Of a stretch of 64,000 nucleotides of DNA, positions 1-62,881 are shown in pieces. The stretch is from Eledone cirrhosa (taxonomy: Eukaryota), in the NCBI GenBank assembly GCA_964016885.1, contig OZ024740.1, positions 407,526,001-407,590,000 of the forward strand. Reading direction: 5' to 3'. Made by a program: the position numbers and the translations under genes. Under the pieces are notes generated by a model. The model made no database searches, was not told the DNA's origin, and saw only the letters and a list, made by a program, of their open reading frames with translations. Each line of letters starts with the position of its first letter. The first letter of the stretch is position 1.

Positions 1-2622
1 TTCACCATTGAGGCAGAATATCTGGAGATGTCGCAGCCTCAACGCATGTCTGCGCATCATTAGCCACGGCATGCCCAGCCCTCCGTGTAGAGGGTGCTGG
101 CAGCAGATGGACCGCCTCACCAACGGAACTTGTCCCCTCCACAAGAATTTGAAGAGGAGCCGTTCCAACTTGACGAGGCGCGGACGGGGGCAAGGTACGA
201 CGATTAGGCGGTAATAGATGACGGACGCGATTTACGCATTCGCCACCTCCGCGCGACCTTTCAGTGATAGCTTCCTTCCAGCCCATTTTTGGGTGAGCCT
301 GGCTACTCTGCTCGTTACCTCGTCCCAATTCTTTTCCACCTGGAGGTCTGGTCCAAACCAAACCCCGAGCAACTTTACTGGTCCGTCCGTCCAGCGCCCC
401 ACGACGCTGTTGGACGGCATGGGCTTGCCTCTCCAGGTTCCGAGCTGCAAGCCCACCGACTTTTCCGGGTTAAGTTTGGCTCCTGTCAACCTTTCATATT
501 CTTTCAATAAGGTGCCGACCACCTCGATTTCTGAGGTGTTTGACACCATCACGGTGATGTCGTCCGCATAAGCCGACACCGCCTTTCCACGTCCCGGTTC
601 GAGCGGGATGCCCTGCAACAGCTCCAGCTTCCGCAGTAAAGGCTCGAGAGTCAATACGTACAGAAGGGAAGAGAGAGGGCACCCTTGACGGACCGATCGG
701 GAGAGCCGAAATGGTTCCGAGAGGTGGCCATTAACTTTGACCACCGAGTGTGTGCCGCTGTGCATTGCAACGATCCAGCTTCTAAAGACAGGGCCGAAGC
801 CAGCTGCTTTGAGGACAAACTCCAGATACCGATGGTCGACCCTATCGAATGCTTTTGATTGATCTAAATTGATCAGTGCCCCACCGAAGCCAGGTTTACA
901 CCCTACCCTCTCTATGATGTATCGCATGAGGTGGAGATTGTCGTGTATGGACCTGGCTGGGATTGCGCAAGTTTGCACCTCCCCAACCAAATCCTCGACG
1001 ACAAGCGCCAATCTCTTTGCTAACACCTTGGCCAAAATCTTAAACTCTGTGTTGAGCAGAGTTATGGGCCTGAAGTTGTCTAATGTATCCCTCTTGTTCT
1101 CGTCTTTCCTTATCAGCGTCACCACTCCCCTGCTCACAGAACTGGGAATACTCCCATTCTGCTGCCAGTTACAGTAGAGTGCTTCAAGGAGTTCGGAGAA
1201 CAAGTCTGGCATATTTACGTAAAGCTCGTAGGGCAGGCCATCCAAGCCTGGTGACTTGCGCCTCATGCAGCCGACAAGGGCGTCCTGAATTTCGGCTGAA
1301 GTAATCGGCCTTTCGCAGCGCTCAGCGTCGACCGTCGAGATGCGCGGCAAGCCGTCAAGGTAGGGACTGAAATCCGCTACTCTCTCTGACCCGCCACTCT
1401 CCCCGAACAACCGAGAAAAGTGCTGGCGAAAGGCCTCACACATCCGCTTGGAATCACTTATCTCGTGTCCGTCTCGGTCCGCCAAAGACCGAATTGTGGT
1501 TTTATTACCACGCTGCGCCTCCGCCACGCGGGCCCATCGAACAGCTTTAGTTCCCTCGTTTCTCAGTGCACGCGCCTTAGCTCTGACAATGCAACCTTCG
1601 TGTTTGGCATTGAAGAAATGGTCTAATGCCATTCTCGCCGCTAGCACGTCAGTTGCGATGCCACTACAAATAGCCTCGTCTAACTTATCTACCAGCTCCC
1701 CCTCCTTTCTATTTTTCTCTAACGCTAGTTCTTTGCTGAACTCTATCGAAGTTACTCTAATCTCTCTTTTGAGAGCCCCCCACCATCTGTTGTTGATGAT
1801 CCCCCCTGTCAACTTTTGCTTAACTAACTTATTGACTCGGTCCCTGTAAGCCTTACGTGCCGGAAATGACATGTTCAGCTTCCAGTAACCCGGTCCTAAC
1901 CTACGCGTTTTATTTAGGTCGACCGTACAGATCACAAATTTGTGATCTGAATAGGCGACCGTTTTAAAAAGTGGACAGCCCACACTATTTCTATCTATTT
2001 TCCTAATGAAGATTCTGTCTATATACGATCTAGATGACCCCATTCGGTTGGTCCATGTCCATACTGGCACATTGGGGAAATCTAGTCGATACCTGTCAGA
2101 CAGTTGGAACTGGCTGAGTAGGTGCTTGAGGCTTTTGCACCCCCCGCTCCTATCGGCTACTCCCACACAATCCCAGCGTGCGTCTAAGATGCCATTCCAG
2201 TCCCCCGCTAACAGTAAAGGGCGAGACGTACCCAGAAAGGTCTCCAGGCGCCTAAAGAAGTCAGGTCGTCCGGCCCCTGTAGGGGCGTAGGCGGCCAGCA
2301 GTCTAAAGGCACCACCTTCGCTACTGCTCACATCCAAGACCACCAACTTACCGTCCGGGTCCCGGAAGATCGACCTTACCTCGAGATCCAGTCCTTTCCT
2401 AAACAGCACTGCCACCCCACCCCCCATTCCCGGCCTGCTAACAGATGCGAAGATCTGATAGTCGTCGAAAATGGGGGCTAGTGCACGCGTGTCGGAAATT
2501 CTGGTCTCGCTTACGGCAATCACATCCATTTCCAGCGACTGGAGGTCGTTGAGCAGGCGACCCTGCTTCCAGGGTGACCCCAGGCCGCGAACATTTAAAC
2601 TTCCTACTCTTAATATGGCCAT
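1..2622 (-). CDS. Tx1-type ORF2 (APE endonuclease + reverse transcriptase); in-frame TAA at 232-234
   Basis: Motifs SLNVRGL, SET, GDWN, YIDRIF, YSDH, KSPGLDG, DQSKAFDRV, RQGCPLS, AYADD. The same frame continues after the stop (IASVIYYRL...FLWRG...GGLGMP). Confidence 0.9.
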
Positions 2623-2631
2623 ATTGGTAAG

Positions 2632-4607
2632 CTAAGAGAGAGAGAGGGAAGGTTTACTTACCTCCCGGGTCTTGTGAAGGTCGGGTGGTTCGACCTCCAT
2701 GGTTGGTGGGGTTTCTTTTGGGAACCCCTTTAAAAGTCTTGATGTGGGTTTCACATTCGGGTTTCCCACGTCTTGAGGAAAGCTCTCTCGAATTTCTTTG
2801 AAAGAATTGAGTGACATTCGGACCAGAAGCAAATCTTCTGGCATGCAAAATGTGCTCATTTCAAAAATCTCCCCCTCTGTTTGAATGTCCTCGCTTCGCG
2901 CTAAGAGGGCCATCAGTTTATCGTTGGCCCTTCTGACAAGCACAAAGTTTTTAAACATTTTGTTGGTGTGGTTTTATTTGTTTTCGTTTTGGTGAAGGTG
3001 GTGGCGATGGTTTTGGTGGTGTTGTTTCGGGTATGTCTATGTTTGTTGTAGGTGTGGTGTCTGCAATTTCAGGTATTTGTGTGTTTATTTGTACTTGTGT
3101 TTGTTTAGGTTGTTTGCGTTTCGGGGATTGTGGAGGTGGTGTCGATGTTGCTGATGGTGCTGATGTTATTGGGGAAGTGTCTGCGTTAGTGGTGTCTGTA
3201 TTTTTTGTTGTGTGTGTTTTTGTGTTTTGTAGGGGCTTTTTTTTTTGTGTGAGTTTTCTCTGTTTTTTTGCACTTTTGGGTTTTCCTTCATCTTCGCTGC
3301 TGGAAGACAAAGGGTCTGTGTCTGTGAGTGTCTCTGTGTCTGTGTGTGCGTTTATTTTTTTTTTGTCTATGTATATAGTTGGGGGGGGGGGTAGGGGGAG
3401 TGGGAGAGCTTTCCTTGTTTTCTCCTTGGATTGGTTTTGGTGTTGGTGGTGATCCGGCTGCTTTTGATGTTGGTGTCCGTGTTTTTGTTGATGTTGTTTT
3501 TGGTGGTGGTGGTGGTGCAGCTTTCCGTGCTGACACTGGCGTTGGCAACAAAGGAGGTTTGCGACCCCCTGCATTTTTGCGCTGAGGGCAGAAGGCTTGA
3601 AGATGCGTGGCTTCCCCGCAAACGAAGCAGCGTGGCCTTCTTCCGTCAATCATGAGTTGGATTGTTGTCCCGTCCTGCAGGCGGGCAAAATCTGGGATGT
3701 TATTTATATCCTCCGGTTTCATTTGGAGAAGAATCTCCAAATCCATTCCGGACCAGTCTTCTCTCTCTGTCCTTTTGATGTCCAGGAGGGTGGTGTCTGT
3801 CCCCTCCTCGATTACGCATCCCAGCAGCCACCATATGTTCATTCCTGGTGGGATGCTGGGAATGCGTACCTTCACTGTCCTTTTACCCATATAGGACGGA
3901 TGCATGATAATGCGTTCCGTTCTGCAGGGGATCACCGAGTGCTTAATAGCGAGGGCCTCGGATTTGAACAGTACCGAGATGGTACCGAACTGTTTGCCTC
4001 TTGCTTTGTACTCTATGTTACTTCCGATGTACTCCAACGCAGCCTCTACCTCTGCTTGGCTCGCAAGTTCCACTTTTTGTGTCTGCACCGAAATACATCG
4101 AAAGAGCACCGTCCTCCTTTGCATGGCCGCTATTGCCTCGTCCGGGATGGTCAGGTTTGCCCAGGACTTCTCCCGTTTAATTAGCCTCCACGCTTTGGCT
4201 AACTGTTCGTCTTTATCGCTAATATCAATATCGATATTCAATAAGCGCTTTGTTTTTGCTGCTGCTGCTGCAGCAAATGTGGTGTTTCTGATGCTCTTAT
4301 TGTTGTTGTTGTCATTCTTGCTGTTGCCACCGCCATCCTTGTTTACATTGAAGCTGTCGGTGTTTTTGTCGTTATTGCTCTGAGTTGTTGTTGTGGTGGT
4401 GATGGTGGTGGCGGTGATGTCGTTTTCAGATGATACTGCTGCTATGCCAGAAGATTGTGATGGTAGCTTTTTAGTTTTGCCTTCACATTCAGTAGAGTGG
4501 ATGACAGGCATGACTGTAGCCGTCGTAGTCGTGGTGAAATCTGCAGTGGCTGCCTTTAAACTTTTGACCTGAACGTTGTTTACTGTTTCAAGGTCGAAAA
4601 TTTCCAT
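2632..4607 (-). CDS. Tx1-type ORF1 (CCHC zinc knuckle, long Pro/Thr/Lys-rich C-terminal region), frameshifted
   Basis: CFVCGEATHLQAFCP knuckle. The ORF is split over three overlapping frames (3288-4607, 2951-3649, 2632-2958), with homopolymer runs near the shifts. Confidence 0.75.
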
Positions 4608-6817
4608 AATTTTCTTTTGGTGGGGAAGCGATTTTTTTTTCGAAGATTTTAAAAATAAATCTGAATATTCGGGCTTAAAGCCTGAATATTGAGAGGTATC
4701 CCTCTCTTTAAATCAAGATGTGTACCTTAAGTTTCGTTAATGACAAGAAAATACAAAAAAAAGACACTTTAAAACAGCTTAAATCTACGAACCGTTTCCC
4801 CCGCAGACTTGTCTGTCTTCACACATGTGCGGCCATATAATAATAATAATAATAATGATGATTGTCCTACCAATGTTTAGGTTGGAAATCAGTCAAATGT
4901 GTCTCATCAGTGTGGGTCATTGCCCCCACCCCCCACTGCTATATATCATTAACTTATAAAAAAAACCCAATAGGTTCAGCTTTCAGTGTTTAATTATTAA
5001 TAAACACACCTCATTTTGTTCTACTTTACTCAATTCACAGAATCATTTCTTAATTTTCTTTTTTGTTTGAAAAATACAGATTTCAGTTATTGCTATCGTT
5101 TTTCTGTATTTTCAATTTATTTGCAAGACTTATCTAAATAGACTTACAGGTTATTCATTCCAAAACCATTTATCATTTCCTTTGGTTTCAGCTTTATTTG
5201 TTGATTTAGAATTTGGATTGTTATTTTCTTTCTTATTGACAATTTTCAGATGTTTCTATTTTCTTTGAAAATTCCATACATCACAATATTACTTAACTCT
5301 TTATCATTTGGAAGTATGAAGGTATGAGCTGGCACAGCCCATTAACTTTCAAGTGGTTTATCATTGGTTGTACTGCAGCAGTATTACAACTAAAACCTTC
5401 AAAGTTTCTACAACTTCAGAATTTCTAATGATTGAATTTCAATGAATGACATCACATGAAATTAATATAGTTCAGTCTAAACAACAAGAAGTAGATATCT
5501 ATAGAAAAATATAGGCAAGTAAGGGATATCAGTATGTAACAGTTCTTGGAATGAAGAATTAGGAAAGGGGTTCAGTAAAGAATTTAGGAGATAAGGTATA
5601 GTAGGGGTGAAAGAGGAAGAGTGATAAGTATGTTGGGAGGGTCTAGACAGAGGGAGATATGTAGCTAACTAGTTTAGAGGAATAGAGACTGTTGCAGTAA
5701 CAATAGAAAAGGCAGTGCACTTGTGAATTAGAAACTTATTGGTGAGTGAACCATTGGAAATCAATCATATGGTCTTATTCAGAATCTATGAAGTAATAAA
5801 CTGTTTTTATTTAGCTAAAAGTGAATGTTTAGCTGAATAGAGTAGACATTTCAAATAAAAATATATATAAAAATATAAACTTTAGTATGAATGAAATAAT
5901 ATGCAACTTCAAAAGTACTATTTTACAATTTATGTTTTGTAATTTTTGAAAACAAAAATAAGGTTAAATATTTAAATATGTAAAGAGAATGAAAAGAACT
6001 TTTATATAACAGGAAAACTGCAAAATGATAGAATAGAAAATATATATAACATTTAACATATACATCAAAATATGCATTTCAAAGAAGGCCATTTATTCTC
6101 TCTCAAATAAATTTCATATATTTTAATATTTTTAACAAAAAGGAAAGGTAAGTTGTTTTCATAAAAATGAAAATCAGTTAGTTATTTATGTGTTCAAAAT
6201 TAAATATGTAGAACTAATATTTTTTCTGGTTTTAATAAATATTATATTGCATAAAAGTTAACAATATTTATGAAAATATATTTTGTTATACAAAATAGAA
6301 ATGATTTTATCAACAATTTGTTTTTAAAAATAAAGTTGTTTGATAGACAAGACATTCAGAAATAAGCAATGGCATTTACTTTAAAGAAATTGCAAGATCA
6401 ATAAAAGCTTTTCAGTACACAAAACATTCTATAATATCTCCAACATACTTCAAGTATTTGGAAACAGCTTATTCAATTCTGCAGGAGTTTAATTAATGGA
6501 TGGCTTAAAAATAAAACTTAATTTCATTACACGTATCTAAGCAACAGAAAATGAACCTTTGAATAAGCATTATTGGGATTAGATCTTTTGTGCCTTTTAT
6601 TAAAGTTGAGATAATAAAAATATCTTTTCCTCTGGTTGAAACCAATACAATTCAATTTTCTTTGATTATGAGTGACTGGTTATTTTGAAGTAGATGCATG
6701 TAAAAGATACAGTTTTAAGTTAATGAATGAAATATTGGTGATATTAATATTGTAAAGCTGCTTTATGTAGATGCACCCTAGTGTTATAAAGTGATGTAGA
6801 TGCACCCTAGTGTCACA

Positions 6818-13603: not shown

Positions 13604-13634
<31 letters not shown>

Positions 13635-13638
13635 TAAA

Positions 13639-14016
13639 TCATCATCATTTTACGTCCGCTTTTCCCTGCTTGCAAGGGTGGGACAGGAACTGATTCTGGC
13701 TTGATTTCTACAGCTGGATGCCTTTCCTAACACCAACCTCATTTACAGTGAGTGCTGGGTGCTTTTTCCGTGGTGCCTACACATCCACTTTACAGTGTGA
13801 GCTGGGTTTTTTTTACCATGGCACTTCCACGACCACTTTGCAGTGGAATGATAGGGACCCCAGTCCCTATCATCTCATTTCTACAGCTGAGTAAACTGGA
13901 GCAATGTGAAATAAAGCGTCTTGCTCAAGGAAACAACACATCACCCGGTCTGAGAATTGAACTCACAACCTTTCGATTGCAAGCCCAATGCTCTAACCAC
14001 TAAGCCATGTGCCTCC
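13639..14016 (-). mobile_element. Full-length SINE family 1: tRNA-derived head + CORE-like domain + RTE-derived tail
   Basis: A box TGGCTTAGTGG, B box GTTCAATTC, CCTTGAGCAAGAC domain, tail CCCTTGCAAGCAGGGAAAAGCGGACGTAAAA(TGA)n matching the RTE subfamily A end. Confidence 0.85.
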
Positions 14017-14091
14017 ATACTCCTAATATATATATATATATATATATAGTGACGAAACATAAGTCAATTACATGAACTCATAATCCTTTAT

Positions 14092-21381: not shown

Positions 21382-21778
21382 TTTAAAAATTAATATTAAA
21401 AGCAAAATATAATGTAACATTTCACTTTTTGAACTTGTCAATTATATAATACATATTTTTTAAAGTCTTTGTGAATCAGTTATTCTTTATTATCATTTGT
21501 ACACAGTTTGGAAATTTAGCAAAGTTTTGCATATTAATATTATACTAAAACTTGTTTAATATGAGTAATGTGACTGTGAGTATTAAATTTTGTTATTTAT
21601 TGAATGAAGAAATGAAGAACAGCATGACATCTACTTTTGCATTCTAATTGACCTACTGTAGGCAATGCAGCAGTAAAATAGATGAAATTTACTAATTTGT
21701 GCATGTGCACATCTTAAAGGCATCTGGCAAGATTTGCATCATAATATATCTATTATTCATGCAAACTACTCCACTTAC

Positions 21779-21888
21779 CCTCTCTGACTGACTACATTGA
21801 AGGCAGTTCATAACTTTGTTCCAGACTGATATAAGGCCATCAGATGAAGTGTTGGTAAATCTCGGAGATTCAAAGGTAGGAAAATATT
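21779..21888 (-). CDS. Host-gene exon (EYFPTFESPRFTNTSSDGLISVWNKVMNCLQCSQSER)
   Basis: CTTCCTTGTAG acceptor, GTAAGT donor, 110 nt, phase 1/0. Confidence 0.65.
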
Positions 21889-22178
21889 CTACAAGGAAGT
21901 TGGTAACAAATACAGGAATGTTTTCAAAATCCCCAACAATGAAAATTAACTTTGTATTGTTTACCAACACAAAAAACTTTACAGATTTAATTTGAAAAAT
22001 ATGAATATATAGAAGAAATAAAACAACCCCACGTTGAAAGAAAAACTTGAACTCAATTATATACTGATTAATTTGAAAAAATTAACATATTTTATGAAGA
22101 TTTCAAAGTTTCTGGAAAAGATTTCAAGTTTTAGAAAACAAATAAACTTAATATTAGATTTGCCTTGTATGAGTGTGT

Positions 22179-28881: not shown

Positions 28882-29432
28882 ATATATATATATATATATA
28901 TATACACAAATTGTTCTTAAGACAGAGTTGCTTTTACATAATTTTTTTTATTGCATAATATATATTTCAATGACATGGTTATGAAATGGTTATATTATTG
29001 ACAATCTCCATGTGACATCATCAGATGCTCATAAATTATGAGGTGTAGTTATGCAAGTATGCTGATATGCTGCTAGTATATTGGTGTGATGCAAGTGAAC
29101 ATAACACATGGAGACTGTGAATGATATAACCATTATGTAACCATATCATTGAAATACGTATTATGCAATAAAATAGTTCTGTAAAAGTAACCCTGTTTAA
29201 CAACTTTTCATAAATGGAAACTCCATCACACATAATCACCAACATTCTGCTGGGGATACACAACTGATGTGAAGTGCTTTTGGATTGATTAAACTGGTTT
29301 ATCCTTGCAACATTACAACGTAACCTCTACAGATAAACACCCTTATTATATCTGCACTATATATATTGTGTGTGTGTGAATGTGTACGCATGTGTGTGTA
29401 TGCATGTGTGTGTATGTATATATATATATATA

Positions 29433-32400
29433 TTTTCTGGGTGGGAAATGACGATGGGATGGGTGGTGTAGGTATCCTACTAGCTGACAAGTGGGTAGAT
29501 AAGGTAATCTCAGTGAACAGGGTGAGTGCAAGAATCATTACACTCGGACTAGTCCTGAATAAAACAATTACCACACTAATATCAGCTTACGCACCTCAAT
29601 CGGGGTTGCCAGACAAACTTAAGGATAGGTTTTACAAGTCCCTAATGCACACTACTGCTCTAACAAACGACAATGACTTCCTAATCATTGCAGGAGATTT
29701 TAATGGACACGTAGGTAAACACCATGACGGCTTCTATAGAGTCCATGGAGACCATGGGGTTGGCACAAGAAATAAAGAAGGATTTAGACTTCTAGAATTC
29801 TGCGACGCCAATGACATGTTGATATGTAACACAAACTTCAAAAAACCCGACAACCACCTGATCACCTATAGATCAGAGGAGCAGTCTAGTCAGATAGATT
29901 TTATCCTCATCAGAGGACAGGACAGATGGACCTCCCAACATAGCTTAGTTGTCAGCGACCTCATGGTCAGAACTAGACGAACCTGCAAACAGAAGCCAAC
30001 CTGGAGAAGAAAGATCTGGAAGCTGAAAGACCCCTCAGTCAGTAGCAGATTTAAAGATATTTTACTCAATGCCTACAACAGTAAAGAACAGATAGAGACA
30101 TTCAATGTAGAAGAGCACTGGGAGTTGCTAAAAAATAACTTACTAGAGGCGACGGACGAGATCTGTGGTTGGAGCAGGTCCACAGGGAGGAGGAGAGTGA
30201 CTTGGTGGTGGAACAATAAGGTAGATGAGGCAGTTAAGGCCAAGAGACAGGCATGGAAAGAATGGAAGAACGGGGGTAGCAGGGTACATTACATAGAGAC
30301 CAGGTGGGAAGCTAGGCGACAAGTATACTTAACTAGGAGGGAAGCAGAGGATAGAAAATTCAGAATGTTTGGCAATGTGAGGACCAGAAACAGGAGGTGT
30401 TCAAGATTGCGAGGCAGTGTGTCAGAGAGAATTGTGATGTCATTGGAGAGAAGTGTATCCGGAATGAGAAAGGTGAGCTTGCCCTCACAAGTGCTGAGAA
30501 GAAAGATGCGTGGAAGAGCCATTATGATAGATTACTAAATGAGGAGAATACATGGAAAGAAGAGACCCTACCCCAAGTAGACCCTATAGAGGAGTCGGCA
30601 GTACAAGTCAGCAGCAGCGTAGTAAGTAAGGCAATCAAAGATATGAAGACGGGGAAGGCAACCGGTCCATCGGGTATAGCTGCTGAGATGCTGAAGGCAT
30701 CTGGGGTGGTAGGTCACACTATAACCACACGTATTGTTAACCAGGTAATACTAGAAGGTGTCATACCAAAGGATTGGTGCAGTAGCATCATTGTCAAATG
30801 CTATAAAAGTAAAGGTGATGCACTAGATAGAGGAAACTATAGAGGTATAAAGCTGATGGACCAGGTCATGAAAGCAACAGAAAGAGTTATAGCACAGTTG
30901 ATTAGGGACCGAGTGAAACTAGATGAGATGCAATTTGGGTTTGTGCCAGGAAGAGGCACCACTGATGCCCTCTTCCTTGTGAGGCAGTTACAGGAAAAGT
31001 ACCTAGCTAAAAGTAAGCCACTCTACCTGGCATTCGTCGATCTCGAGAAAGCCTTTGACAGAGTTCCCCATGCTATAATCTGGTGGGCTCTTAGAAAACT
31101 AGGAGTAGATGAATGGCTTGTGAAAGCTGTACAAGCCATGTATAGGGGAGCAGTCAGCAAAGTTGTGATTAGCAATGAGTAAGGCGAGGAATTTAGCGTA
31201 CAGGTCGGTGTCCACCAGGGCTCTGTTCTTAGCCCTCTCCTGTTCATCATAGTCCTGCAGGCAATAACGGAGGAGTTTAAGACCGGATGCCCATGGGAAC
31301 TCCTGTATGCAGATGACCTCACACTTATAGCTGAATCTATGGTAGAACTAGAGAAGAAATTCCAAACTTGGAAGCAGGGACTAGAAAGAAAGGGTCACAA
31401 AGTCAACCTGACAAAGACTAAGGTCTTTGTAATTAGACGAGAAAACAGAACCTAGATCCCCTCAGGGAAATGGCCTTGCTCAGTATGTAGGAACTCCATT
31501 CTCTGCCCCAAATGCAAACAATGGGTACACAAGAGATGTAGCGGGATCTCAGGAAGCTTAACTAAGAATGTAGGCTTCACATGTAGCAACTGTTCTGGGA
31601 CAGCAAGCAGCAAACAGCCACAGGAAACAAGTGCCACCAAACTCTGGGAGCGCTCTGTAGAAACAGTAGACAGCTTCTGCTACCTAGGTGACCGAATTAG
31701 CAGCGGAGGTGGGTGTTTGGAAAGTACAATAACTAGGGTAAGAATGGGATGGAAGAAGTTCAGGGAGCTACTGCCACTGTTAGCTGCAAAAGACTTTTCC
31801 CTCAAAATGAAAGGCAGACTGTATGATGCATGTATACGAACAGCAATGTTACATGGTAGTGAGACCTGGGTGTTGTGTGTAGAAGACTTGCATAGATTAG
31901 AAAGAAACGAAGCCTGCATGCTCCGATGGATGTGTAATAGTAATATACGCGAACGGCAAAGCATAAATGAATTGAGAGAGAGACTGAGCATAAGAGGAAT
32001 CAAATGCTGTCTGCAGGAGAGGCGGTTGCGTTGGTATGGACATGTGATGCGTATGAAGGATGACAGCTGCATAAAAAGGTGCAGAGCACTAGAAGTCGAT
32101 GGAAACCGCGGAGTGAGGAGACCCAAGATGACCTGGGATGAGGTGATAAAAGCCGACCTTACCCAATTACACCTCCCAAAGGCGATGACACATGACCGTG
32201 ACCTCTGGTGTCATGCAGTAATACAAAGTACCCCCCCCCCCGGGTATAAGCCGAAGCTGAACCATATAGACAATATGCCCCTACACCCTCCCACTGCAAA
32301 GTGGTCGTGGAGGTGCCACGGCAAAAAAGCACCCAGCACTCACTGTAAATGAGGTTGGTGTTAGGAAGGGCATCCAGCTGTAGAACTCAAGCCAGAATCA

Positions 32401-42048: not shown

Positions 42049-42283
42049 CCTACTGTTGTCTTCCAGTATAGTTGAAATCCTTGTTCTCCTGAAATGAGGG
42101 AAAGGCCCTAGTTTGTTGTCTGAATTCTCATCTGTATCAGAGTTGTCTGCCCCTGTTGGCTCACCTCTTTCACTGAGGCTGTGTAGCTTAGAATCTTTTA
42201 CTATTTGATTTTTCTTCAAAAGTTTGCGTTCATCTACCAGTGGCGAGGGGTGAGGGGACAATGAACTCGGTCGAATAAGATAT
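42049..42283 (-). CDS. Host-gene exon (YLIRPSSLSPHPSPL...TILEDNSR)
   Basis: Polypyrimidine tract + TTTAG acceptor, GTAAAT donor, 235 nt, phase 2/0. Confidence 0.75.
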
Positions 42284-45500: not shown

Positions 45501-46039
45501 GGTAGTTCGTTCGGAGCAAATTTTATCACTGGGGTGTTATCATAAAAAAAACACCTTCAAAAAACTTTTTCCACTCTTGTCATGCCATTGGCTGTTGTTA
45601 CTCCACGTCATCTAAAGTTCTGATCACTATTTACTGCTACACGGGTCATCAGCCATTTTCCGCCCGACACACTTCAATGGAGTCATGCTGGGTTTGGTAT
45701 CTCACACGTCTGTTCACACTCCAGAGTATGTACCCACACATACATATACACACACAGGCAGACACAGACACATGCGTGCATACACATATGTACGCATACA
45801 TGCGTAGACACCCCCCTCCCCCCACATATATATATATACACGCGCACACTCTCCCTCTCTTCCACAGACCCAGGCACACCCACTTCTAGATACATACCGC
45901 CACAAGGCTATTAGCGCCTGCCTAAGTCGCGCCATATATCCGGTCCGACACACACGACCCACACAAACATACACACACATACGCGCGCACACATACCTAC
46001 GCACAACCTTATATACATATATATACACACATATACAAA

Positions 46040-48392
46040 CAATAAGGTAGATGAAGCAGTCAAGGCCAAGAGACAGGCATGGAAAGAATGGAAGAACGGG
46101 GGGAGCAGGGTACATTACATAGAGACCAGGAGGGAAGCTAGGCGACAAGCATACTTAGCTAGGAGGGAAGCAGAGGATAGAAAATTCAAGCATGTTTTAC
46201 AACGTGAGGACCAGAAACAGGAGGTATTCAAGATTGCGAGGCAGTGTGTCAGAGATAGTTATGATGTGATTGGAGAGAAGTGTATCCGGAATGATAAAGG
46301 TGAGCTTGCCCTCACAAGTGCTGAGAAGAAAGATGCATGGAAGAGTCATTATGATAGATTACTAAATGAGGAGAATGCATGGGAAGAAGAGACCCTACCC
46401 CACGTAGACCCTATAGAGGGACCAGCAGTACAAGTCAGCGGCAGCATAGTAAGTAAGGCAATCAGAGATATGAAGATAGGGAAGGCAACCGGTCCATCGG
46501 GTATAGCTGCCGAGATGCTGAAGGCATCTGGGTCTGTAGGTCACACTATAACCACACGTATCGTTAACCAGGTAATACTAGAGGGGGCCATACCAAAAGA
46601 TTGGTGCAGTAGCATCATTGTCAACTGCTACAAAGGTAAAGGCGATGCACTAGATAGAGGAAACTATAGAGGTATAAAGTTGATGGACCAGGTCATGAAA
46701 GTAACAGAAAGAGTTATAGCACAGCTGATTAGGGACCGGGTGAATATAGACGAGATGCAATTTGGGTTTGTACCAGGGAAAGGCACCACTGATGCCCTCT
46801 TCCTTGTGAGGCAATTACAGGAAAAGTACCTAGCTAAAAGTAAGCCACTCTACTTGGCATTTGTCGACCTTGAGAAAGCCTTTGACAGAGTTCCACGTGC
46901 AGTAATCTGGTGGGCTCTTAGAAAACTAGGAGTAGATGAATGGCTTGTGAAAGCGGTACAAGCCATGTATAGGGGAGCAGTCAGCAAAGTTAGGATTGGC
47001 AATGAGTATAGCGAGGAATTTAGCGTACAGGTTGGGGTCCACCAGGGCTCTGTTCTTAGCCCTCTCCTGTTCATCATAGTCCTGCAGGCAATAACGGAGG
47101 AGTTTAAGACCGGATGCCCATGGGAACTCCTGTATGCTGATGACCTCGCACTCATAGCTGAATCTATGGTAGAACTAGAGAATAAATTCCAAACCTGGAA
47201 GCAGGGACTAGAGAGAAAGGGCCTCAAAGTCAACATGACAAAGACTAAGGTCCTTATAAGTAGACGAGAAAACAGAACCCAGATCCCCTCAGGGAAATGG
47301 CCTTGCTCAGTATGTAGGAAAGGTGTAGGTAGGAACTCCATTCTCTGCCCCAAATGCAAACAATGGGTACACAAGAGATGTAGCGGGATCTCAGGAAGCT
47401 TAATTAAGAATGTAGGATTCACATGCAGCAGCTGTGCTGAAACAGCAAGCAAACAGCCACAGGAAACAAGTACCACCAATCTCTGGGAGGGCCCTGTAGA
47501 AACAGTAGACAGCTTCTGCTACCTAGGTGACCGAATTAGCAACGGAGGTGGGTGCTCAGAAAGTACAATAACTAGGGTAAGAACGGGATGGAAGAAGTTT
47601 AGGGAACTACTACCACTGCTAGCTGCAAAAGGCTTCTCCCTCAGAATGAAAGGCAGATGTATGATGCGTGTATCCGAACAGCGATGTTGCATGGTAGTGA
47701 GACCTGGGCGCTGAAGGTGGAAGACTTACGTAGATTAGAGAGAAACGAAGCCTGCATGCTCCGATGGATGTGTAACAGTAATATACGTGAACGACAAAGC
47801 ATAAAGGAATTGAGAGAGAGACTGAGCATAAGAGGAATCAAATGCTGCGTGCAGGAGAGGTGGTTACGCTGGTATGGACATGTGATGCGTATGAAGGATG
47901 ACAGCTGCATAAAAAGGTGCAGAGCACTAGAAGTTGATGGAAACCACGGAGTGGGGAGACCCAAGATGACTTGGGATGAGGTGATAAAAGCCGACCTTAC
48001 CCAACTACACCTCTCAAAGTCAATGACACACGACCGTGACTTCTGGCGTCACGCAGTAATACAGGGTACCCGACCTCCCATGGGTACATGCTGAAGCATA
48101 TAAACAATATGCCCCCCCCCCCCACCGCAAGGTGGTCGTGGAGGTGCCACGGCAAAAAAGCACCCAGCCCACACTGTAAAGTGGACGTGTAGGCGCCACG
48201 AAAAAGCACCCAGCACTCACTGTAAATGTGGTTGGTGTTAGGAAGGGCATCCAGCTGTAGAAATCAAGCCAGATCAGTTCCTGTATGAGCAAGGCATGGT
48301 CAGCCGACCAGACACTGCCCACAACAGGACAACCCGTCTAACCCATGCTAGCGTGGAAGAACGGACGTAAAACGGTGATGATGATGATGATG
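46040..48392 (+). mobile_element. RTE subfamily B, young, 5'-truncated
   Basis: ORFs 46266-47714 and 47657-48094; nearly identical to 60139-62356. Confidence 0.93.
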
Positions 48393-50105: not shown

Positions 50106-50238
50106 TATAATCTTTTAATGGAAGATTTAGATGAGCCATGCGACATTTAACCATCTGTGCAATCTCTTGACGTTCAGGAGTTGTGTTAGTGTGGTAAGTA
50201 GACTGCTCTTCATTTTCATGATTCATACTTAGAGAAAC
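50106..50238 (-). CDS. Host-gene exon (VSLSMNHENEEQSTYHTNTTPERQEIAQMVKCRMAHLNLPLKDY)
   Basis: T-rich tract + CCAG acceptor, GTAAGT donor, 133 nt, phase 0/1. Confidence 0.75.
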
Positions 50239-60138: not shown

Positions 60139-62356
60139 ATCATCATCATCATCATCATCACCGTTTTACGTCCGTTCTTCCACGCTAGCATGGGTTAGAC
60201 GGGTTGTCCTGTTGTGGGCAGTGTCTGGTCGGCTGACCATGCCTTGCTCATACAGGAACTGATCTGGCTTGATTTCTACAGCTGGATGCCCTTCCTAACA
60301 CCAACCTCATTTACAGTGAGTGCTGGGTGCTTTTTCGTGGCGCCTACACGTCCACTTTACAGTGTGGGCTGGGTGCTTTTTTGCCGTGGCACCTCCACGA
60401 CCACCTTGCGGTGGGGGGGGGGGGGCATATTGTTTATATGCTTCAGCATGTACCCATGGGAGGTCGGGTACCCTGTATTACTGCGTGACGCCAGAAGTCA
60501 CGGTCGTGTGTCATTGACTTTGAGAGGTGTAGTTGGGTAAGGTCGGCTTTTATCACCTCATCCCAAGTCATCTTGGGTCTCCCCACTCCGCGGTTTCCAT
60601 CAACTTCTAGTGCTCTGCACCTTTTTATGCAGCTGTCATCCTTCATACGCATCACATGTCCATACCAGCGTAACCGCCTCTCCTGCACGCAGCATTTGAT
60701 TCCTCTTATGCTCAGTCTCTCTCTCAATTCATTTATGCTTTGTCGTTCACGTATATTACTGTTACACATCCATCGGAGCATGCAGGCTTCGTTTCTCTCT
60801 AATCTACGTAAGTCTTCCACCTTCAGCGCCCAGGTCTCACTACCATGCAACATCGCTGTTCGGATACACGCATCATACAGTCTGCCTTTCATTCTGAGGG
60901 AGAAGCCTTTTGCAGCTAGCAGTGGTAGTAGTTCCCTAAACTTCTTCCATCCCGTTCTTACCCTAGTTATTGTACTTTCTGAGCACCCACCTCTGTTGCT
61001 AATTCGGTCACCTAGGTAGCAGAAGCTGTCTACTGTTTCTACAGGGCCCTCCCAGAGATTGGTGGTACTTGTTTCCTGTGGCTGTTTGCTTGCTGTTTCA
61101 GCACAGCTGCTGCATGTGAATCCTACATTCTTAATTAAGCTTCCTGAGATCCCGCTACATCTCTTGTGTACCCATTGTTTGCATTTGGGGCAAAGAATGG
61201 AGTTCCTACCTACACCTTTCCTACATACTGAGCAAGGCCATTTCCCTGAGGGGATCTGGGTTCTGTTTTCTCGTCTACTTATAAGGACCTTAGTCTTTGT
61301 CATGTTGACTTTGAGGCCCTTTCTCTCTAGTCCCTGCTTCCAGGTTTGGAATTTATTCTCTAGTTCTACCATAGATTCAGCTATGAGTGCGAGGTCATCA
61401 GCATACAGGAGTTCCCATGGGCATCCGGTCTTAAACTCCTCCGTTATTGCCTGCAGGACTATGATGAACAGGAGAGGGCTAAGAACAGAGCCCTGGTGGA
61501 CCCCAACCTGTACGCTAAATTCCTCGCTATACTCATTGCCAATCCTAACTTTGCTGACTGCTCCCCTATACATGGCTTGTACCGCTTTCACAAGCCATTC
61601 ATCTACTCCTAGTTTTCTAAGAGCCCACCAGATTACTGCACGTGGAACTCTGTCAAAGGCTTTCTCAAGGTCGACAAATGCCAAGTAGAGTGGCTTACTT
61701 TTAGCTAGGTACTTTTCCTGTAATTGCCTCACAAGGAAGAGCGCATCAGTGGTGCCTTTCCCTGGTACAAACCCAAATTGCATCTCGTCTATATTCACCC
61801 GGTCCCTAATCAGCTGTGCTATAACTCTTTCTGTTACTTTCATGACCTGGTCCATCAACTTTATACCTCTATAGTTTCCTCTATCTAGTGCATCGCCTTT
61901 ACCTTTGTAGCAGTTGACAATGATGCTACTGCACCAATCTTTTGGTATGGCCCCCTCTAGTATTACCTGGTTAACGATACGTGTGGTTATAGTGTGACCT
62001 ACAGACCCAGATGCCTTCAGCATCTCGGCAGCTATACCCGATGGACCGGTTGCCTTCCCTATCTTCATATCTCTGATTGCCTTACTTACTACGCTGCCGC
62101 TGACTTGTACTGCTGGTCCCTCTATAGGGTCTACGTGGGGTAGGGTCTCTTCTTCCCATGCATTCTCCTCATTTAGTAATCTATCATAATGACTCTTCCA
62201 TGCATCTTTCTTCTCAGCACTTGTGAGGGCAAGCTCACCTTTATCATTCCGGATACACTTCTCTCCAATGACATCACAACTATCTCTGACACACTGCCTC
62301 GCAATCTTGAATACCTCCTGTTTCTGGTCCTCACGTTGTAAAACATGCTTGAATTT
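60139..62356 (-). mobile_element. RTE subfamily B, young, uninterrupted RT-PHD ORF, 5'-truncated
   Basis: ORF 60443-62404 (RTE part from ~62356); (CAT)n tail. Confidence 0.94.
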
Positions 62357-62564: not shown

Positions 62565-62653
62565 CCACCATATATATTTTCCCCTCGAGCTCCCAGATAC
62601 AGGAAAACTATCTATTGGGCAATTTTCACAATGGATAACAACAGATTTTGTTA

Positions 62654-62714
62654 ATCATCATCATCATCATCATCATCAATTAATGTCTATCTTCCACGCT
62701 AGCATGGGTTAGAC
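62654..62714 (-). mobile_element. RTE 3' terminal tail fused to a U1 copy
   Basis: GTCTAACCCATGCTAGCGTGGAAGA...(TGA)n, as at the ends of RTE subfamily B. Confidence 0.8.
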
Positions 62715-62719
62715 TTTTT

Positions 62720-62881
62720 AGGTGAGCGCGAATGCAGACCCCACACTTAGGAATAGTGCACCCGAGTCGCCCACATTTGGGGCAATCACAAAGGTCAACC
62801 CAACCAGAGTGCAATGGAAGGGCCTCACTCTGGGAGAACCACCTAGCTGATCATGGTTAACCCCTGTGCCAGGTTAAATGT
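62720..62881 (-). ncRNA. U1 snRNA-derived sequence (variant or retropseudogene)
   Basis: ACCTGGC...ACCATGATCA..AGGTGGTT.TCCCAG.G.GAGGC...TCCATTGCACTC.GG...CCCCAAATGTGGG..ACTCG...GGGG.CTGC.TTCGCGCT is colinear with metazoan U1. Confidence 0.88.

Follow-up and report, generated by a model that had tools for sequence, protein, structure and literature searches.

A single U1 snRNA copy joined to a LINE 3' terminus in a KCNT2-like gene of Eledone cirrhosa

The locus and its host gene

Within the window (the whole 64,000-nt stretch of Eledone cirrhosa DNA analysed here), a composite element on the minus strand reads, in order, U1 nt 7-160, a T+A5 linker, a 36-nt LINE terminus and (TGA)8, with the snRNA copy lying directly 5' of the LINE 3' end and in the same orientation. 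An Rfam scan of the window places a U1 match (RF00003) at 62717-62881 (-), with 98.9 bits and an E value of 1.2e-23. The original prediction had described a full-length U1 of about 162 nt; the match to U1 holds and the full length does not, as the copy spans 154 nt (62721..62874 (-)), corresponding to nt 7-160 of the native variant at C2:27.9 Mb and C11, and is, besides its loss at the 5' end, without the last 3-4 nt of U1. It contains loop I, the U1-70K site (62843..62852 (-)), loop II, the U1A site (62809..62815 (-)), and the Sm-site region (62746..62756 (-)). The linker at 62715..62720 (-), which sequence comparison places outside the LINE, had been given as A5; the A run is there, and in full form the linker is T+A5, six bases long. 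Next come the predicted 3'-terminal stem-loop of the LINE subfamily (62685..62714 (-)), whose exact 5' base forms the junction, and the last 6 nt of the LINE with the (TGA)8 tail (62655..62684 (-)), in agreement with the terminal sequence of about 40 nt and (TGA)n described earlier. The whole composite is flanked by a candidate 5-bp target-site duplication (TSD), TTAAC, with its 5' copy at 62873..62877 (-) and its 3' copy at 62650..62654 (-). This candidate is weak, since a match of at least 5 bases occurs in 2.3-11.7% of random flanks allowed 1-4 nt of boundary slack. Folded without constraint, the whole chimera is unremarkable (z -0.51).

The host is a KCNT2-like channel gene. For the exon at 42049-42282, the match to KCNT2-like channels is 100% in three Octopus species and 96% in Argonauta. 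The next coding exon downstream of the chimera (50107..50238 (-)) shows 95% identity to P0001 by tblastn, and the exons upstream of it fall outside the window, at G000:C1:407.601-407.605 Mb. Because KCNT2-like exons are thus found on the minus strand on both sides, the chimera is intronic and, as originally predicted, in sense orientation to the host transcript. Two further minus-strand exons, at 21776-21889 (-) and G000:C1:407601188-407601259 (-), match only the KCNT2-like isoform P0003 and are therefore likely, judging from these alignments, to be alternative exons.

The 36-nt LINE terminus at the locus also occurs in many repeats of the window, and an exact 35-nt version has 1160 copies in the genome. 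In 30 inspected copies of this terminus, the LINE 3' UTR nearly always precedes it and A5 never does. The longest tail-bearing copies extend into a reverse transcriptase (RT) ORF with an RVT_1 domain (E 4e-32; tblastn of tail-bearing copies, 57-79% identity). The donor LINE thus runs from an RT ORF into a 3' UTR with a predicted terminal hairpin and a short-repeat tail, and clear TSDs are seen in only a minority of its copies. We take it to be RTE-type from clade hallmarks rather than from an RT tree; a protein-atlas look-up returned RVT_1+PHD clusters only, without a clade name. RTE LINEs have been reported to be active in octopus (PMC9115989, PMC13282606).

Other retroelements of the window were also recorded. 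RTE-type ORFs, among them those at 60443-62341 (-), 45915-47714 (+) and 29324-32352 (+), carry a PHD-like finger (PF00628, E 6.7e-6) after the RT domain, and two long RTE-type copies are nearly identical and mutually inverted. A tRNA-headed SINE at 13630-14020 (-) has a LINE-like terminal hairpin and a (GAT)n tail. The LINE at 232-4712 (-), presumably Tx1/L1-like from its motifs, has a 799-aa ORF that encodes endonuclease and RT domains, preceded by a 474-aa ORF1-like frame.

The U1 copy beside the native U1 genes

Native U1 genes form clusters at C2:27.9 Mb, C11:40.1 Mb, C2:169.4 Mb, C2:181.0 Mb and on C1128. Common to these genes are TCAGT at about -58, TATA-like sequence at about -30 and an A-rich box downstream, and similar upstream and downstream motifs accompany a U2 gene. 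Around the U1 copy of the chimera, none of these motifs of native U1 and U2 genes was found.

The closest source of the copy is the C2:27.9/C11 variant, with six differences over nt 7-160, compared with nine to the array variant. Five of the six substitutions are CpG transitions: changes fall on 5 of 18 CpG positions and on 1 of 136 others (Fisher p 7e-5), a skew that is the pattern of unconstrained methylated DNA. CpG-type changes are present in both the U1 and the LINE halves.

Measured against native genes rather than the Rfam consensus, most of the alterations that had been ascribed to the copy disappear. Loop I, thought to be altered at the U1-70K site, is the same in the native genes at C2:27.9 Mb and C11:40.1 Mb and departs from the Rfam consensus only. 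The supposedly altered 5' splice-site-pairing end is flanking DNA, as identity to the native gene begins at U1 nt 7 (62874). For the Sm site, the claim survives for a single base, a T>C change at 62751 (U1 nt 130) relative to native genes, where the native base has high depth in read runs X1 and X2; the remaining oddity of the site is native. Loop II is intact, both in the Rfam match and in the comparison with native genes, as had been noted. We accordingly rejected the reading of the copy as a U1 variant, its differences being lineage-native, flank or CpG decay. The copy thus has no native-type promoter motifs, an incomplete 5' splice-site-pairing end, a changed Sm site and no signs of constraint, and on this sequence comparison the locus is not a functional U1 variant gene. 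With no promoter of its own, it is predicted to be read only as part of a KCNT2-like intron and to make no snRNP.

A separate observation concerns the native genes themselves. In every native U1 gene seen (for example L068, L080 and L088), loop I and the Sm region lie off the Rfam consensus, and a U1-70K protein or Sm ring co-adapted to them in this lineage is possible; the literature searched holds nothing on such co-adaptation. For loop I, no difference is listed in the read runs of organisms B and C, where coverage is thin.

Copy number and other snRNA-derived copies

Across the 3.0-Gb assembly, the pattern for the U1-LINE junction has one match. An A4+tail pattern occurs at five loci, with U1 at the chimera locus only. 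The pattern for the U1 3' end, which allowed for CpG decay, gave 42 matches, of which gene clusters and C11 account for 40, C1466 for one without a tail and the chimera locus for the last, and that for the U1 mid-region (up to 3 mismatches) gave 49 without a second chimera; such patterns would miss old copies with more changes. DNA and Rfam searches, scored for the top 40 of 341 and 42 candidates, likewise returned no second chimera. The fetched loci contain 72 partly redundant U1 hits; only four of them have a tail within 400 nt, and each of the four is the chimera locus. Read run X1 is possibly the source sample of the assembly, in which case it is not independent; there, depth is 10 on the junction contig and 10.5 on its flank, compared with about 400-460 on U1 contigs.

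The original prediction had considered a member of an RTE-mobilised, U1-headed SINE family. With one junction locus in the genome, no other tailed U1 copy and single-copy depth in X1, this reading fails on the defining feature of a family, and the chimera locus is not a SINEU member. The single copy with a unique junction fits instead the one-off chimera, the outcome that had been named in advance as speaking against a family. A daughter copy is conceivable in another form, in which a U1 gene gained the LINE hairpin and its U1-promoter transcript was mobilised by the LINE. Most native U1 genes have T-A4 directly after the gene, so the linker could be gene flank with a 3-nt deletion, and the U1 arrays may be incompletely assembled. 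Set against this are the single copy, the absence of a master locus, the depth of the junction contig in X1 and the 137-7,700 copies reported for known SINEU families (PMC4494074), and we regard it as highly improbable. Among the fetched native genes, with unassembled array units outside the comparison, none carried a LINE tail. We give very little credence to an invertebrate SINEU at birth, whose master has been lost, is polymorphic or sits in a U1 array that escaped assembly; if true, it would be, by the literature searched, the first U1-headed, RTE-mobilised element outside crocodilians.

Six other dispersed U1 copies are without a LINE tail; each is short of 4-14 nt at the 5' end, and five are truncated at the 3' end as well. 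By eye, the ends of the other dispersed U1 pieces are ragged and a clear TSD is missing, which would suit a DNA-level origin, with a fragment of a U1 gene inserted by break repair and the LINE stub incidental. The copy in the chimera, however, has its two limits only a few bases from the ends of the mature RNA and brings no promoter or 3'-box DNA with it, and the adjacency of the stub would be left unexplained, which makes break repair a very unlikely source. At one further locus (L100, G000:C24:16.86 Mb), two U1 fragments stand head to head, inverted, with the same U1 end position and mirrored flanks.

Other snRNAs were surveyed in the same genome. All 48 scored Rfam matches to U2 lie in gene clusters. 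For U6, a 3'-end pattern has 131 matches, and we examined 41 dispersed copies (the 14 top Rfam hits plus 27 more in list order). As many as 29 of the 41 join retroelement sequence, of six kinds (L120, L121, L137-L178), and 12 are unclassified. Five are joined to the donor LINE type, at four different points, two to a tRNA-headed SINE whose tail is of the donor LINE's kind, seven to another tRNA-like SINE, and three and two to two further tails. The remaining ten (L139, L140, L146, L150, L156, L157, L160, L165, L167 and L172) join a short tail of about 60 nt that closes with AAGAGT repeats; their join points all lie within 0-5 nt of a single position, and their junction bases differ. BLAST classes here divided one 12-copy U6 cluster 10+2. 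The ten represent either a hotspot of ligation or switching or a small family with U6 heads. Clear TSDs accompany some U6 chimeras (L148, L142 and L137). Given this number of U6-retroelement chimeras, the machinery for snRNA capture works in this genome.

A different kind of U1 repeat was seen in read runs X4 (organism B) and X7 and X9 (organism C), over window positions 62721-62838. It comprises U1 nt ~43-160 only, is CpG-decayed and has a very high copy number (summed depth 5,000-28,000 against contig depths of 8-24, with more than 100 contigs per variant site). A shared AT-rich stretch precedes it, a 3'-box-like sequence and a T run follow it, and the loose ends shown contain no LINE tail. 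It looks like a true U1-derived family of gene origin; the patterns searched in G000 found no family like it.

The junction, its proposed origin and known systems

The hairpin base at which U1 meets the LINE is a truncation hotspot, with 577 genome matches to a pattern requiring six non-C bases directly before it. Of 30 such matches inspected by eye, 26 are stand-alone stubs, mostly beside (TA)n; the stubs inspected (loci L179-L218) are about 60 nt long, and some have TSDs of 5-9 bp (L180, L197 and L211). A boundary this discrete would be expected if a trimmed LINE 3'-hairpin RNA had been joined to U1 RNA before reverse transcription, by an RtcB-like ligation, and the ten U6 copies joined to one short tail, all within 0-5 nt of a single position, are what a discrete trimmed RNA would produce. 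Yet none of the 30 sampled stubs carries an snRNA head at the Rfam gathering threshold, nor do 10 more examined by eye. U1 RNA ends in a 3'-OH and the U1 copy in the chimera ends in an A run, both of which count against such a joining. The mechanism has been demonstrated for U6/L1, where it needs a 2',3'-cyclic phosphate (PMC6789731). Overall, we consider RNA ligation distinctly unlikely here.

The junction between U1 and the LINE is without microhomology, and the linker has three possible sources: oligo(A) added to U1, as the original prediction had it and which is thus just one candidate, the T-A4 of native genes with a 3-nt deletion, or the target flank, copied with 5 of 6 bases the same. 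Two other explanations of the A run were tried and rejected. Templating by the LINE was dropped as two of the five A4+tail loci fall in an older family whose terminus differs, and the idea that truncation at the hairpin base generally yields A5 was dropped as A5 occurs in 1 of 100 among the matches listed, this one being the chimera locus. In a search for the empty or orthologous site, which no run showed, RAD-seq data from three runs contributed 4, 0 and 3 reads over the locus and no joint, and in the runs of organisms B and C the flanks of the chimera are uncovered at 80% likeness.

The agreement between the linker and the first six bases of the 3' flank (five equal) also provides a rival duplication around the stub alone, and with it a history in two steps. 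A tailless U1 retrocopy would have inserted first (TSD TAAC), and a hairpin-base stub later at its 3' edge, duplicating six target bases of which one has since changed, to leave the T+A5 linker. Tailless dispersed U1 copies do exist, and hairpin-base stubs are numerous, some with TSDs of their own. On the other side, two steps require an extra substitution within six bases, most stubs lie beside (TA)n runs, unlike the chimera site, and by chance a stub should adjoin any of the 8 dispersed U1 ends only about 4e-6 times per genome, or about 0.005 times for any tail copy. We therefore favour one event over independent adjacency and think two steps unlikely, while the weak TSD, the linker-flank match and the lack of microhomology between U1 and the LINE weigh against a single event. 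The human data on U1/L1 and U6/L1 chimeras, given below, also count against a template jump.

The locus is best read as an snRNA/LINE chimeric retropseudogene formed by a template jump during retrotransposition. More specifically, we consider it probable that a single U1 retrocopy, now decaying neutrally, was joined, by a template jump within one insertion, to the final 60 bases of an RTE-type LINE. Under this template-jump model, the LINE protein would prime at a TTAAC target on the (TGA)n tail by target-primed reverse transcription. The reverse transcriptase would copy the tail and the terminal hairpin, halt at the hairpin base and jump to a U1 RNA at its 3' end, which would bear a few A residues, and copying would then proceed through U1 almost to its 5' end. 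The second strand could join through a 2-nt microhomology, since the AC of the candidate TSD coincides with U1 nt 7-8 (the last two bases of its 5' copy), with U1 nt 1-6 lost.

On its own, the locus is a dead pseudogene, which had no promoter and hence did not spread. Its interest is that it extends snRNA/LINE chimeras to U1 and an RTE-type LINE in a cephalopod, and that it puts on show a step proposed for the birth of SINEs, in which a small-RNA head gains exactly the LINE hairpin and tail required for mobilisation. Template switching was suggested to add small-RNA heads to RTE-derived elements (Kojima 2018, PMC5786205). The chimera class itself is known, and what is rare is the pairing, in an invertebrate, of U1 and an RTE-type LINE; the literature searched, with supplements outside its scope, reports no U1/RTE chimera and no cephalopod snRNA chimera. 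The available text of a mollusc SINE survey mentions SINEU for crocodilians only (PMC4758252), and an O. vulgaris annotation contains automated SINE classes 'U' (19 insertions) and 'U-L1' (2 insertions), undescribed in its available text (PMC13282606).

The nearest relatives are the U6 chimeras with L1, L2 and RTE LINEs (Doucet 2015, PMC4476161), which include U6/L2 and U6/Mon-1 in platypus and U6/RTE in Anolis and opossum. As in those snRNA/LINE chimeras, the snRNA here lies 5' of a 5'-truncated LINE 3' end in the same orientation, with a unique junction and no further spread; U6/L1 chimeras are likewise described as not self-propagating (10.1101/2025.02.02.635956). The study gives 5'-truncated U6, a short LINE piece and a TSD of 1-9 bp as the pattern for L2 and RTE; the L2/U6 cases resemble the present locus further in the slight 5' truncation of the snRNA and, if the candidate TTAAC is real, in the short TSD (PMC4476161). 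Unlike the U6/LINE chimeras of that study, the present one involves U1 (Pol II, Sm class), has a T+A5 linker, retains only the terminal hairpin and tail of the LINE and resides in an invertebrate host. U1 is named among the RNAs known to form L1 chimeras (10.1101/2025.02.02.635956), while for 33 human U1 copies the available text of Doucet 2015 gives no U1/L1 switch chimera and classes 18 as polyadenylated processed pseudogenes (PMC4476161). These pseudogenes share with our locus a U1 followed by an A run, for which surveillance adenylation was proposed there; here, the run is 5 nt long and internal, and the LINE terminus would prime.

The crocodilian SINEU-1, -2 and -3 also carry a U1-derived head on a retroposed element, and a template-switch event was proposed for their origin, as it is here (Kojima 2015, PMC4494074). 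They are multi-copy families, kept apart in that work from independent chimeras, with 137-7,700 copies and inferred Tx1-Mar mobilisation, compared with one copy and an RTE-type terminus here; for SINEU-1, the available text gives no LINE with the same 3' end, whereas the present chimera carries the LINE terminus. Finally, in human cells U6/L1 chimeras arise by RtcB RNA ligation rather than switching (Moldovan 2019, PMC6789731). Such RNA likewise joins an snRNA 3' end to a truncated LINE without microhomology, through a cyclic phosphate on U6 for which nothing here shows a U1 counterpart. For this question, the hairpin-base hotspot and the many U6 chimeras with several retroelements are more useful than the locus itself, and octopods would be a good test of template jumping versus RNA ligation.
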